From contig OY781964.1 in NCBI GenBank assembly GCA_963677485.1, forward strand, positions 2,816,001 to 2,880,000: a stretch of 64,000 nt of DNA. Direction: 5' to 3'. Position 1 is the first letter of the stretch. The number at the start of each line of letters is the position of its first letter. The notes under the pieces were generated by a model, which did no database searches, had not been told where the DNA came from, and saw nothing but the letters and a program-made list of their open reading frames with translations. Positions 16,512-43,013 of this stretch are shown here, in pieces. This DNA is from Armatimonadota bacterium. GTDB taxonomy: Bacteria; Armatimonadota; HRBIN16. Made by a program: the position numbers and the translations under genes.

Positions 16512-18170
16512 TAGTATCTTACCAACCATATTTTGAACACGGTGTATAGAATATTCTGATATTACGCACCACACAAAGCGTTAGGCACAACGATCTGGCG
16601 AATAGCAAGTGCTGCCATGATGATACGCTTGCCAAGTGCAGTGAGGTAGTATTTGTAGCGTTTACCGCATTTTTTAACGAGCCGGAATACTCGGCATCGC
16701 TTGATGAAGTATGATATCTGAGAGCTGGACATCTGCGGTAAGGCTTTTTGAAGCATACGGTTTGTGATCCCGCTGATGCATCCCTCTCCGCGAGCAAGTG
16801 CAATGAGACATTCCAAATCCTTCTTGAGGAAAAGGTTGAATCCTCGATACGAGCGATGATCACGGGTGGTCGAGGTCGCGATTTTGATGATCTGATGTTC
16901 ACCATCGCTGTTGTCATCAAGGGCGGAAAGAAAGTCAAGATATCTGTTGTTTGCAGATAATAACAGTTCCCTCAATGGAGGAAGGCTGTAGATGGTCTTT
17001 TGCATAGGGGCGTATTTAATCTCAGTCGTCCCATCATGATGTTCTACCTCACGGTAGTGTTTAAATTCAGAGACGTCATTCACAGTCGTCTCGATACGCA
17101 AGATTATCCCTTGCTTGTCATACATTTTGATAGAAGCCCATCCCATGTAGTGTTTGATGCGCGTGCCTTGTATGCGGCGATCGAACTTGTAGTCAGTGCC
17201 GATCTCAGCGAGTGTTCGCCCATCAAGTTTCTTACCAAGAAACATCGCGATAGACTCTGGCGTTACCGTATGTATCGCTGTTTTGACTAGATTATCGTAG
17301 ATGGCTTTGAGGTCTTCGGCGCGTTTGAACACGATGTCTGTAGCATATTCCACCTGCATTAGCGACCAATGATATGAATTGTCAGCAAGCCGTATCACGG
17401 GGCAATACATTCTGGCAAATGCATCCAGCGCATGGTGCAGCTTATCAGCAGGAAAAGCGTCTGCCAGCCTCTGAGCACAGCTAAAGTCGTCGATTTTTAC
17501 AAAGGCGTTGTCCAGTGGAGTGAAAACTACTCCCTCGGATTGAAGGCAATGCGCGAGATAATTGTGTCCATTACAATAGAATTGCAGACGGAAGGGCACC
17601 CAGGTCGGAACTCGTAGATAGCACAGTCCAAACTCTGCATCGATGAAATAGAAGTAGTAATGAAGACACTTGGTCTCCTTGATATTCAGCCGGGTTTTGT
17701 GGGTAATCTTGTCGTGCCACGGGGTGTATGCAGGACATTTTTCCAACACTGAGAATATGTGGACGAGACCGGGGTGACACCCTCGACTACTAATGATCTC
17801 TTTGATGCGGTCTTCTTTTCGAAATGAAGAGGCACGGCGTATATACTCAATTTCAATGCTGTTGGTAACGGCAAGGCGTTCCGCATTGGCTTTGATCTCA
17901 TCTCGTAGAGGTTCGGCAAATTCCTTAGGAAAGTCAAATAGCCTGATGTTGCGTTGATGAAGATAGATGCCCATTCCGTCGCTATGACACCAGCCTGGGA
18001 TTGTACCGGTGATAACTATGCGGTCGAAGCATGAATATACCCCAGCTATCTGCTTTGCATAGCGTTCTTGAAGTGATGTCATTCTGGGCAACCTCACGAA
18101 AGGGTGTTTGAATGTATATTACGTGGCGAATGCAATCATTCCTTTTTTGGTTGCGGCTAAGCCGCCTTAG
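16512..18170 (-). mobile_element. Putative TIR-less insertion element (candidate rolling-circle type)
   Basis: Single ORF splitting a tetR/efflux divergon. Terminal hairpin GCGGC-TAA-GCCGC (18153-18165). TAG at both inferred junctions (16512-14, 18168-70). No TIR or TSD seen. Boundaries are approximate. Confidence 0.6.
16562..18097 (-). CDS. Putative transposase with Rep_trans-like motifs and C-terminal wHTH (often mis-annotated as a MarR regulator)
   Basis: 511 aa; QVEYATD, IKMYDK, LRIETTVN in the order of the Rep_trans RxDxAxD / YxK / RxE motifs; wHTH-like C-terminus ...YKYYLTALG. Confidence 0.7.
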   Translation of the reverse strand: MRLPRMTSLQERYAKQIAGVYSCFDRIVITGTIPGWCHSDGMGIYLHQRNIRLFDFPKEFAEPLRDEIKANAERLAVTNSIEIEYIRRASSFRKEDRIKEIISSRGCHPGLVHIFSVLEKCPAYTPWHDKITHKTRLNIKETKCLHYYFYFIDAEFGLCYLRVPTWVPFRLQFYCNGHNYLAHCLQSEGVVFTPLDNAFVKIDDFSCAQRLADAFPADKLHHALDAFARMYCPVIRLADNSYHWSLMQVEYATDIVFKRAEDLKAIYDNLVKTAIHTVTPESIAMFLGKKLDGRTLAEIGTDYKFDRRIQGTRIKHYMGWASIKMYDKQGIILRIETTVNDVSEFKHYREVEHHDGTTEIKYAPMQKTIYSLPPLRELLLSANNRYLDFLSALDDNSDGEHQIIKIATSTTRDHRSYRGFNLFLKKDLECLIALARGEGCISGITNRMLQKALPQMSSSQISYFIKRCRVFRLVKKCGKRYKYYLTALGKRIIMAALAIRQIVVPNALCGA

Positions 18171-37439: not shown

Positions 37440-37618
37440 CGTAGCCTCCCGTGTTTGTGTGCAAACAGGTGATTGATTACCTTGATTATACCCCATATTC
37501 GTAACTACTAAGCCCTAAATAGCAATGTCCGGGGCGGTCTGCCGGATAGCCGTACTGTCACACCTGGGCTGGCAGCTTATGAAAGGCCATCAGCCCACGC
37601 TGCCGCGGGTTTTACCAC

Positions 37619-37846
37619 CAGTCTATTACCCACAAGTCCAGATTGGGATCGTATCGACCATGTACCGCGACATAAATGTCTCGGCTATTGATCATCAAGC
37701 CCGCTAAACCGGGCTGCGGAGCTCCTTGCCGACAAAGATAACGTTAATTTAGACTGCTTCAGCAGTCTTGGTGTTCAATAGCCGAGACATTTATGTCGCG
37801 GAATCGGTGACCTACTGGCCATGCAATATTTGTGGGTAATAGACTG
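37619..37846. mobile_element. Intact MITE with 17-bp TIRs and 11-bp target-site duplication
   Basis: CAGTCTATTACCCACAA...TTGTGGGTAATAGACTG flanked by GGTTTTACCAC (37608-18, 37847-57); internal perfect 27-bp inverted repeat. Confidence 0.9.
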
Positions 37847-37927
37847 GGTTTTACCACCCCGGAAACGTGCTTCCTTCACCGCGCGTCTGATGGGTGACAG
37901 CCAGCAGACGGGGGCCGGGCCTACCAA

Positions 37928-38245
37928 CGCCCGCCGGAACGCGGGCCGGTATTGATAAGCGATGGGTGACAGTGCCCGTACCGGGACGCAGTCACGGACG
38001 GGCCACGGAACCCGTCGCCAAAGGTCAGTGGTGCTGATTGTAGGCGACTAGCCACCGTGCCACGGGTTTAGTCACCCACACGACTACGTTCCGGGAGCTG
38101 GCGCTCCGGGAACTGCGTCAAGTGTGGGTTCCTGCACCGCGTGGCTGATCATTAGCGGCCGGCGTCGCTTCGCTCCGGCCGGCGCAGGAGAACGTCGCGA
38201 CGCATGCGGAATAATGAATGACTATCTCCAGAGCTGAGTAGTCAC
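37928..38245 (+). ncRNA. Candidate structured ncRNA or folded ssDNA element, copy 2
   Basis: Homologue of 31694-32012. Confidence 0.55.
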
Positions 38246-38353
38246 CCAAATACTATTAGTATAGTGGGTAAATGAACACAGGGTTTATGTGGCAGTTTGA
38301 CAGGGAATAGGACCGCTCTTGAGTTCAATGCAGCCCGTACTACTGATACGACC

Positions 38354-38437
38354 GTAGGGGCGTCCCTTGTGGGCGCCCAAAACGTTACTTTGTTGATAGT
38401 TAGTGTTCTTTAGGGCGCCCACAAGGGACGCCCCTAC
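38354..38437. repeat. Inverted REP doublet (REPIN-like); intron insertion target
   Basis: GTAGGGGCGTCCCTTGTGGGCGCCC (38354-78) and its exact reverse complement (38413-37). Confidence 0.9.
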
Positions 38438-39179
38438 GTGCGCCTGCAAGCGTACGCGAACAAAGAGGTGCAATTCCTCTTCGAGGCCACGCCAACTCTG
38501 GCCTTGTAGTCGGCAGTAACTGCGTCACCGCGAGGTGGGGTGGAGAGCAACTGTTGGCGAGTGACCAGTCCGTAGGATAACGAACCCGTTTCGGCCGCGT
38601 AGAACCAACGAGCCAGCGTAGGAATGGTGAAGTTTGTGCTGTGAAAACAGTGCCTGTTATGCTTGAGAGTGAGCGTATAGAGCAGTGATGGGGGTTGCGA
38701 GGTGCTTGGGGATGGAATGGTCACAAGAGGTCGCGTAAGAGAAGCAGGGAGATCTGCCTGCAGTAGTGGCGATAATAAGTTCGTTGCAGGCAGAAGTCAG
38801 AGCGCCCATAGTAGCGTTGAAGCGTCTGTAATGGATGTGGAGCCAAGGGAGCGCAGGAAGGTAGATCCGTGAAGTCTCAGCCACCGAATATAGCTCCGCG
38901 CGAGAAGTGCCTAAAAAAAGGCTAAACAAGCGGAAACAACTAGCAGGCGACTGCTCAGCCATCGGTGGACTGGACAAATCGGATGTTGGTGCCCCATCAT
39001 ATGGGGGCAAAGAAGGCTGTCGCCTTCAATGCTGAGTATAGGTGTTTACACTACAAACATCCTGTGCAAAGAATCACCAATCCTCAAATGAGGTAACACT
39101 ACCAACTGGAGAGCCGTGTGCGGGAGAACCGCACGCACGGTTCGGAGGGAGGGGGAACGAAAGTTCTCCCTACCCCTAT
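38438..39179 (+). mobile_element. ORF-less group II intron (probably bacterial class E-like)
   Basis: 5' GTGCG; domain V GAGCCGTGTGCGGGAGAACCGCACGCACGGTTC (39111-43, AGC triad); domain VI ending CCCTACCCCTAT; 742 nt with no RT ORF. Confidence 0.93.
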
Positions 39180-39239
39180 GACCAGTTACTTACAAGATCG
39201 GTCGGATCTGGCTGATCCGACCGATACACAGGTTGTGGC

Positions 39240-42722: not shown

Positions 42723-43013
42723 CAGCCAACTACCGGTAATTATAGTTTGGGGTCGTACTCATCTGGTGCCGCGACATAAATGTCTCGGCTATTGGTCAGC
42801 AAGCCCGTTGAAACGGGCTGCGGAACTCCGTACCGATATTAATAACGACATTATAGACTGCTTCAGCAGTGTTGTACGTAGCCGGCCGTAGGGGCGTCCC
42901 TTGTGGGCGCCCTAAAAACCATCGAATGAACAACGATTAGGGCTGGTCGTAGGGGCGTCCCGACAGTATCAGTGATATATTGGCTCTGCATAAATATATG
43001 GGTAATTCACTGG
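42723..43013. mobile_element. Degenerate MITE copy containing GTAG REPs
   Basis: CCGCGACATAAATGTCTCGGCTATTG core, AAGCCCGTTGAAACGGGCT palindrome, eroded end GGGTAATTCACTG; REPs at 42888-42912 and 42949-42961. Confidence 0.7.

Follow-up and report, generated by a model that had tools for sequence, protein, structure and literature searches.

A group II intron without an open reading frame at the foot of a REP-like hairpin in an Armatimonadota bacterium

The intron and the repeat that it interrupts

The DNA analysed here is a stretch of 64,000 nucleotides (nt), hereafter the window, of contig OY781964.1 (positions 2,816,001 to 2,880,000, forward strand) from the Armatimonadota bacterium assembly GCA_963677485.1. 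Between a gpsA-like gene and a pyruvate-formate-lyase (PFL)-like gene, the window carries a 742-nt group II intron on the plus strand (38438-39179), which is devoid of a long open reading frame (ORF) and is located within one arm of an inverted doublet of a repeat with the form of a repetitive extragenic palindromic (REP) element. The intron starts with GTGCG and ends with CCTAT, i.e. it has the 5' GUGYG and 3' AY ends of a group II intron; the 5' exon ends at 38437 with ...GGGACGCCCCTAC (in its wider form ...GGGCGCCCACAAGGGACGCCCCTAC) and the 3' exon starts with GACCAG at 39180. The Rfam model RF00029 (group II domains V and VI) matched 39109-39179 on the plus strand with 58.7 bits (gathering score 40, E 5.7e-9), and both domains are present, domain VI with a bulged branch-point A. 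No ORF of at least 118 amino acids (aa) was found inside the intron; the longest ORF overlapping it has 117 aa and lies on the minus strand (38657-39010). A preliminary description of this DNA had named an ORF-less group II intron, and this identification holds together with all of its coordinates.

The 19-mer GGGACGCCCCTAC-GACCAG, in which the two exon ends are joined, has exactly one further copy in the window, which is uninterrupted (42943-42961, minus strand), and none of 100 shuffles matched. In the genome, at least four canonical uninterrupted copies (1037661, minus strand; 1577281, plus strand; 3075612, minus strand; 3299317, minus strand) are identical to the intron flanks over 13 nt upstream and 17 nt downstream of the junction. 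Thus, both splice junctions are fixed, confirming the boundaries that had been proposed from the empty copy at 42943-42961. The first 17 nt of the 3' exon, GACCAGTTACTTACAAG (39180-39196, plus strand), are the outer flank of the REP element, and the same 17 nt follow uninterrupted arms elsewhere; the G at 39180 would be intron-binding site 3 (IBS3).

The doublet around the insertion site (38353-38438) consists of two arms (38353-38382 and 38409-38438), each with a GTAG foot and an imperfect palindrome; the arms have 30 nt each, are 97% complementary and are separated by 26 nt. In the 5.22-Mb genome, the 13-mer at the end of the 5' exon has 89 exact copies, and a looser pattern (stem, ACAA, stem, CTAC) detected 102 arms, among which stem variants are compensatory. 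The base after the arm is G in 99 of these 102 arms, and 64 arms are paired into 32 inverted doublets that span 78-84 nt. In total, the element has the form of a REP, with a GTAG foot and an imperfect palindrome, and the doublets have the form of REPINs (REP doublets forming hairpins). The genome contains three Y1_Tnp genes, and this REP family was absent within 900 nt of all three, i.e. no cognate REP-associated tyrosine transposase (RAYT) was found in that range. Therefore, we refer to the repeat as REP/REPIN-like.

One of the Y1-transposase genes (L090, genome 2991717-2992643) is flanked by another GTAG-foot repeat family (GTAGCCGAGACAT-TTATGTCGCGG...); L090 and this repeat may be a true REP-RAYT pair. 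Sequences similar to the L090-flanking repeat are present in the window at 37765-37798 and 42780-42800. The repeat copy that contains the empty 19-mer (42882-42961, minus strand) is uninterrupted but rearranged: in place of the left arm it has a truncated arm plus GACCAG, and its two CTAC arms are in direct, not inverted, orientation. Finally, window positions 37500-38350 (~850 nt upstream of the PFL-like gene) contain several repeat fragments and no ORF of more than 60 aa.

Genomic copies and loss of the reverse transcriptase gene

A search with the intron identified five copies in the genome, referred to as A to E, with A being the copy in the window, which matched itself with 100% identity. 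Copy B (109419-110160, minus strand) differs from A in 2 of 742 nt. Copy C (824378-826775, minus strand) has the ORF-less form and is split at position 604 by a 1653-nt insertion sequence (IS)-like element. Copies D (1447090-1448937) and E (110161-112008) are 1848 nt long, differ from each other in one base, and each contain an ORF of 442 aa. The protein encoded by D and E matched RVT_1 (1.6e-40), GIIM (2.3e-14) and TIGR04416 (373.5 bits, cut-off 300), as expected for a reverse transcriptase (RT) with a maturase domain, and no endonuclease (D/En) domain was among its domain matches. Thus, the RT-encoding copy that the preliminary description had suggested looking for exists, as D and E.

In an alignment of A and D, identity is 98% over intron positions 1-438 and 89% over 606-742, and the alignment breaks off between these two parts. 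The 167 nt in between (439-605; window 38876-39042, plus strand) are what is left of domain IV after the loss of ~385 RT/maturase codons. Downstream of the gap, the last 14 codons of the RT/maturase gene are kept in A: VFTLQTSCAKNHQS at 39042-39083 (plus strand, detected by tblastn) corresponds to protein residues 400-413 and falls into the stretch of DNA with 89% identity. Upstream, A encodes DWTNRML at 38968-38988. In nucleotide comparison, the 26-nt stretch concerned had a score of 24, equal to the best of 200 shuffles, and is weak by itself; however, WTNRML is in frame with, and at the same distance from the 5' end as, WTRRML in the full-length copy (protein residues 6-11), and we therefore conclude that a remnant of the N terminus is retained. 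With remnants of both termini and an alignment that stops at 438 and resumes at 606, the proposal that the RT gene was lost by internal deletion is borne out.

Copies A, B and C share one common internal deletion of the RT gene, are 99.5-99.7% identical, and occupy three different precise sites. Thus, the ORF-less form moved after it had lost the gene. Judged from the identities on the two sides of the gap, the ORF-less lineage is a mosaic and not a fresh deletion of D or E. It is also not limited to this genome, because contigs from a peat metagenome and from an ice metatranscriptome library, which are 95-99% identical to it, span the deletion region.

The genome harbours 22 near-identical copies (99.2-100% identity) of the IS-like element (~1654 bp), including one in the window (16514-18167; genome 2832514-2834167) and the one inside copy C (genome 824519-826171); the ORF of the element (477+ aa) matched no Pfam or NCBIfam family. 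The genome also contains a third, unrelated group II intron (2649881-2652832, minus strand; domain V match of 45.9 bits), the RT gene of which is in two pieces, split by the same IS-like element. The only intact intron RT genes of the genome are those of D and E, and these are the only ones that the ORF-less form could have used for its movement.

Hairpin, EBS1 and the first base of the 3' exon

The 5' exons of the five copies share only (C/T)CCCTA(C/T), and positions -7 and beyond differ. A GC-rich hairpin precedes every copy, with a stem that ends 4 nt upstream of the insertion site (3 nt in B) and is followed by CTAC (CTAT in B). In copy A, this hairpin is GGGCGCCC-ACAA-GGGaCGCCC (38413-38433, plus strand; DNA fold of -9.3 kcal/mol); it is GGGTGCCC-ACAA-GGGGCACCC in E, GGATGGGC-ACAA-GGCCCATCC in C and GGGCTGGG-AAA-CCCAGCCC in D. 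At these four sites the hairpin has a GTAG foot, which the fifth site only resembles: B is preceded by domain VI of intron E and then CTAT. In all five copies, the first base of the 3' exon (+1) is G.

Relatives were collected as 532 encoding loci, one genome per species; the best 80 of these 532 have 37-62% protein identity and come from many phyla. Among the best 80, the 5' end together with at least 25 nt of upstream exon was located in 26, and the 3' end in 41. The 26 relatives and the five copies of this genome make up the 31 sites examined for hairpins, and an alignment of 28 introns with 12 exon bases each was used for the analysis of exon-binding sites (EBS) and IBS. Loci whose intron starts at a contig end, i.e. 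without exon, were left out (L010, L033, L022, L043), as were those without a GTGCG-type start (L014, L047); L028, with a doubtful 5' end, was kept among the hairpin sites and excluded from the alignment, and L009 was included in the alignment with 12 nt of exon and excluded from the hairpin sites for having less than 40 nt upstream. The mean fold of the 31 sites was -8.85 kcal/mol compared to -3.45 +/- 2.13 kcal/mol in 2000 random 40-mers; 21 sites were below the 5th percentile of the controls, and in 26 the stem ended 2-5 nt upstream of the insertion site. Thus, relatives in other phyla are likewise placed after hairpins.

Domain I of the intron (38453-38737, plus strand; closing helix at intron positions 16-22 / 294-300) was folded with RNAalifold on the 28 sequences, giving 77 predicted pairs, of which 52 have compensatory changes. 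It contains a hairpin (38612-38628, plus strand) with the stem GCCA/TGGT, the pairs of which (columns 212-214 / 227-229) are kept, and the loop GCGTAGGAA. A further hairpin comes after it; IIE and IIF introns have alpha' at the tip of an additional stem-loop in DId3. The loop GCGTAGGAA (38616-38624) covaries with the last bases of the 5' exon: 92.3% of 168 cells are paired, a level reached in none of 500 shuffles, and pairing fell to 24-52% when the partner was slid by 1-3 columns. Of the 28 introns, 26-28 retain each of the pairs at exon positions -1 to -5, and 18 retain the pair at -6; two of the mismatches in L068 are explained by a one-base insertion in its loop. In total, the earlier proposal that GTAGG at 38618-38622 is EBS1 is confirmed by covariation with the 5' exon, and its partner IBS1, CCTAC at 38433-38437 (plus strand), is the complement of the GTAG foot of the REP plus one base of the stem.

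No intron column was found to pair with exon positions -6 to -12 (best 0.71 compared to 0.96 for IBS1; background 0.40 +/- 0.10), and there is, therefore, no sign of an EBS2. For the +1 base, the best-pairing of all alignment columns is the one at 38705 (plus strand), which pairs in 21 of 23 introns with two mismatches. The introns of this genome have C in this column and G at +1; most relatives have G in the column and C at +1, and L037 has T and A, respectively. We suggest 38705 as a candidate EBS3.

RT-encoding E and ORF-less B stand in tandem with zero bases between them (genome 109419-112008; L002 and L005). B may have entered after domain VI of E, or E may have re-entered a site already occupied by B, as the intron's own first base is G; the data are compatible with either order. 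Because the domain VI hairpin with CTAT mimics the REP target and the first base G meets the need at +1, occupied sites may stay targets. In copy A, domain VI (39147-39175, plus strand; Rfam alignment) has its bulged branch-point A at 39172 and is followed by CTAT. It also contains CCCTAC (39168-39173), which perfectly matches the EBS1 of the same intron and includes the branch-point A.

The host repeats of the relatives bear on whether REPs as such are recognised. In one group of relatives, the exon motif ...CCCGCTTTCGCGGGAATGA is a repeat in all five host genomes searched (26, 15, 15, 40 and 6 matches, the last in G010, which is flagged unpublished), often as inverted doublets, and reversed controls gave 0 matches. 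In another group, the motif ACCGCGCGAGCGGTTTAGT is single-copy in three of five host genomes, and the other two gave no match. Related introns in eight beta- or gammaproteobacterial genomes (L034, L041, L038, L031, L039, L051, L036, L042) have a near-identical 5' exon, ..TACCGCGCGAGCGGTTTAGT, the motif of which is single-copy in three of five genomes checked, and start with GTACG, not GTGCG; a single target conserved across species is unusual for a hairpin-targeting intron. Because relatives use both repeats and single-copy hairpins, we conclude that a hairpin followed by a short IBS1 is the general rule. In this genome, REPs supply such sites in abundance, and EBS1 matches the local REP foot. 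The proposal that EBS1 reads the GTAG motif of REPs is thus right for the pairing itself and for four of the five sites, and too narrow in that the target is a hairpin with a 5-nt IBS1 and a +1 G, not the REP as such. Likewise, the expectation that relatives would be found in REP contexts holds for the group in repeats of 6-40 copies; the group at a single-copy hairpin speaks in part against it.

Class assignment, proposed mobility and alternatives

Among solved proteins, the D/E protein is closest to RTs of class C (IIC) introns, i.e. GsI-IIC RT (8.7e-72, 245.7 bits; ~45% identity, judged by eye) and the E. rectale IIC protein (209.7 bits), with lower scores for IIB TeI4h (140 bits) and LtrA (139 bits). 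A relative from Candidatus Kuenenia stuttgartiensis (L017, 55% identity) has the same pattern (238.9 vs 161.5 bits); the more distant L077 group, which we take, purely as a guess, to be class F, scored 193.5 vs 150.2 bits. A class E origin, which had been suggested for the short remnant of an intron-encoded protein, is not supported. Among the Rfam D1-D4 models, the intron matched only RF01998 (14.4 bits, below the gathering score of 35), which is of no help for the class.

With respect to RNA, the clade combines traits of different classes. The bulge of the epsilon' region, AGGATAACGAA in copy A (38574-38584, plus strand), has 11 nt in 25 of the 28 aligned introns and starts with AGGA in 20 of them, most often as AGGAT. 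Domain V (39111-39143, plus strand; Rfam alignment) contains an AGC triad, a 4-bp distal stem and the 5-nt loop GAGAA. Of the 43 clade members, 42 have the AGC triad (40 by pattern, 2 by eye) and 41 have the 5-nt loop with a 4-bp distal stem; this stem is presumably one pair shorter than the usual form. According to the account of class traits in Toor et al. 2006 (PMC1702495), IIC introns have no EBS2-IBS2, an exon stem-loop, an IBS1-EBS1 of 3-4 bp, CGC instead of AGC in domain V, a distal stem of domain V that is 2 bp shorter than in IIA and IIB introns, and an 11-nt epsilon' bulge with AGGAA that is given as unique to IIC. The intron and its relatives agree with class C in having an RT and maturase without D/En domain, no detectable EBS2-IBS2, an exon hairpin and the 11-nt epsilon' bulge. 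Judged from the scores to solved proteins together with these RNA traits, the element is class-C-related and IIC-like in its working. The AGC triad, the 5-nt loop and an EBS1 of 5-6 bp weigh against strict membership in IIC. The preliminary description had presented the element as analogous to IIC introns at terminators or attC sites; with no EBS2, a hairpin at the position of IBS2 and the 11-nt epsilon' bulge, the likeness goes beyond analogy, and the element itself is IIC-like.

We consider it likely that the intron is a non-autonomous, ORF-less derivative of an endonuclease-less group II retroelement in or beside class C, which is targeted by EBS1, a hairpin and a G and depends on an RT supplied in trans. 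In this model, the EBS1 loop GUAGG pairs with CCUAC in RNA or CCTAC in DNA; a small GC-rich hairpin ending ~4 nt upstream replaces the EBS2-IBS2 pairing; and a +1 G is required, probably read by the EBS3 C at 38705. As REP arms offer a palindrome, CTAC and G, they would provide ~100 intergenic landing sites. Insertion would occur by reverse splicing into lagging-strand template that is transiently single-stranded and so allows the hairpin to form, with copies D and E as the putative source of the RT/maturase. Reverse splicing at the replication fork is expected because the protein has no endonuclease, and endonuclease-less introns are described as priming from replication-fork strands (Zimmerly and Semper 2015, PMC4424553). 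All five copies, i.e. four loci, are oriented on the lagging-strand template, as judged from a cumulative GC skew that is lowest at 2.14 Mb and highest at 4.74 Mb. The third, unrelated intron has the opposite strand orientation relative to replication from copies A to E.

Contigs of public runs were inspected for joints in the parts of the stretch that they cover. In two isolate runs, 38430 is joined to 39173; an empty allele or spliced RNA was rejected as the source, since the same 18,682-nt contig has 8 differences over the 89 nt upstream, and the joint is read as a paralogous uninterrupted REP. Another joint (38866 to 39091) is most likely explained by the RT-encoding copies. The intron is also covered by contigs of an RNA library (run X11), from which transcription is not demonstrable.

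Several observations weigh against this model. The ORF-less form is a mosaic relative to D and E (98% identity over 1-438 and 89% over 606-742). The 5' part of domain IV (439-532), which is the usual region for binding of the RT/maturase, does not align with the full-length copies, and recognition in trans is therefore not assured. Domain V with AGC instead of CGC, its 5-nt loop and an EBS1 of 5-6 instead of 3-4 bp depart from class C; the agreement in orientation at four loci has a chance probability of 1/16; and only 2 of the 102 REP arms are occupied. Reads gave no evidence of splicing or mobility, and the RNA-library contigs may derive from DNA. Moreover, both genes next to the window copy run antisense to it, and no promoter-like site was found upstream of it on its own strand; for these reasons, the window copy is probably silent and harmless.

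The ORF-less copies could instead be inert relics, i.e. dead deletion products that neither splice nor move and for which the location in REPs means nothing. A lack of any ORF, the antisense position of a window copy without promoter-like site, the disruption of copy C by the IS-like element and the unaligned part of domain IV all fit such relics. By contrast, one deletion shared by three copies with 99.5-99.7% identity at three precise sites, each with a hairpin of its own, needs movement after the deletion. In addition, the domain VI stem has a compensatory change (A-T vs G-C) between the ORF-less and the full-length lineage while domain V is identical, and the same ORF-less form occurs with 95-99% identity in contigs from other environments; we regard the relic explanation as distinctly improbable. 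The intron could also home in the manner of IIB introns on a long REP sequence, recognised through EBS1 plus an EBS2 that escaped detection or through the protein, with the hairpin being incidental to the palindromic nature of REPs. Four of the five sites are in GTAG-foot palindrome families, domain V has IIB-like features (the AGC triad and the 5-nt loop), and the EBS1 pairing of 5-6 bp exceeds the 3-4 bp of IIC introns (Toor et al. 2006, PMC1702495), all of which would agree with such homing. However, the sites have only (C/T)CCCTA(C/T) in common despite 98% identity of domain I between copies; no partner column was found for exon positions -6 to -12; copy B uses the domain VI of another intron; one group of relatives follows a hairpin that is single-copy in three of five genomes (and not found in the other two); and in 26 of 31 sites a stem ending 2-5 nt upstream is kept whatever its sequence. 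These observations make homing on a long sequence very improbable.

The element could also be a class E or F intron with a IIB-like RNA that only mimics the behaviour of IIC introns. The 5-nt domain V loop, found in 41 of 43 introns here and described as an unusual trait of IIE and IIF introns (Nagy 2013, PMC3753933), and the AGC triad point in this direction; so may L017, if it is the Kuenenia intron c-Ku.st.I1, which Toro and Martinez-Abarca 2013 (PMC3552965) place with basal class F. Nevertheless, IIE and IIF introns are described in the same text of Nagy 2013 (PMC3753933) as having a clear, covarying EBS2-IBS2, and none was found here; the 11-nt epsilon' bulge is given as IIC-only (PMC1702495); and the D/E protein has 245.7 bits to a IIC RT compared to 193.5 bits for the more distant L077 group. 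On balance, membership in class E or F is unlikely.

Compared to known IIC introns (B.h.I1, O.i.I1, GsI-IIC), the retroelement shares an RT/maturase that lacks an endonuclease domain, a stem-loop a few nt upstream and the lack of EBS2-IBS2, as far as these are covered in Toor et al. 2006 (PMC1702495), Zimmerly and Semper 2015 (PMC4424553) and Waldern 2020 (PMC7306698), as well as a 3' exon probably read by EBS3, the 11-nt epsilon' bulge and the closest solved proteins. It differs from them in the AGC triad, the 4-bp distal stem with the 5-nt loop and the EBS1-IBS1 of 5-6 bp, and in that REP arms lacking a T-run serve as its hairpins in place of terminators or attC sites. With class E and F introns it has in common the lack of an endonuclease domain, a small RNA, the 5-nt domain V loop and the AGC triad (as described in PMC3753933), and it differs from them in its 5'-exon hairpin and the lack of a detected EBS2-IBS2. 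Bacterial ORF-less introns are described as rare and as nearly always sharing the genome with relatives that may provide the protein in trans (PMC4424553). Here, three ORF-less copies are likewise found together with two RT-encoding copies; by contrast, the ORF-less form targets hairpins, multiplied after the deletion, and is a mosaic with respect to the resident RT-encoding copies. In Pseudomonas putida KT2440, 2 of 9 copies of a group II intron are reported to be associated with REPs, and REP-targeting IS elements are also tabulated (Tobes and Pareja 2006, PMC1525189); the case described here differs in that a pairing with the REP foot is identified by covariation and that relatives in five other genomes sit in a repeat family of their own.

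Insertion of IIC introns after "other inverted repeats" has already been published (PMC1702495), and targeting of hairpins or terminators is described in PMC4424553 as known only for class C. A literature search found no mechanistic link of group II introns with REPINs or RAYTs; supplements and much of the older literature were beyond its reach. What is new here is the covariation-backed pairing with the REP foot, the targeting of repeats recurring in five other genomes, a clade with a non-canonical domain V and an ORF-less derivative that spread. More tentatively, and as a possibility that we consider doubtful at present, the clade could be a distinct endonuclease-less lineage beside canonical class C in which EBS1 tracks the REP/REPIN foot of the host (CTAC here, AATGA in the five other genomes), with REPINs serving as safe landing pads and the ORF-less form being doubly parasitic, exploiting both REPs and autonomous introns in the way that miniature inverted-repeat transposable elements (MITEs) exploit transposases.

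The basic picture of group II intron biology is unchanged by these observations. A class-C-like protein and mode of targeting combined with a IIB/IIE-like domain V blur the boundary of class C, and the short target rule (stem, CCTAC, G) could serve designers of gene-targeting introns. Moreover, a copy without RT gene can still multiply, and the covariation shows how a guide of five bases can be tuned to the foot of the host repeat, which would open up around a hundred neutral intergenic targets.

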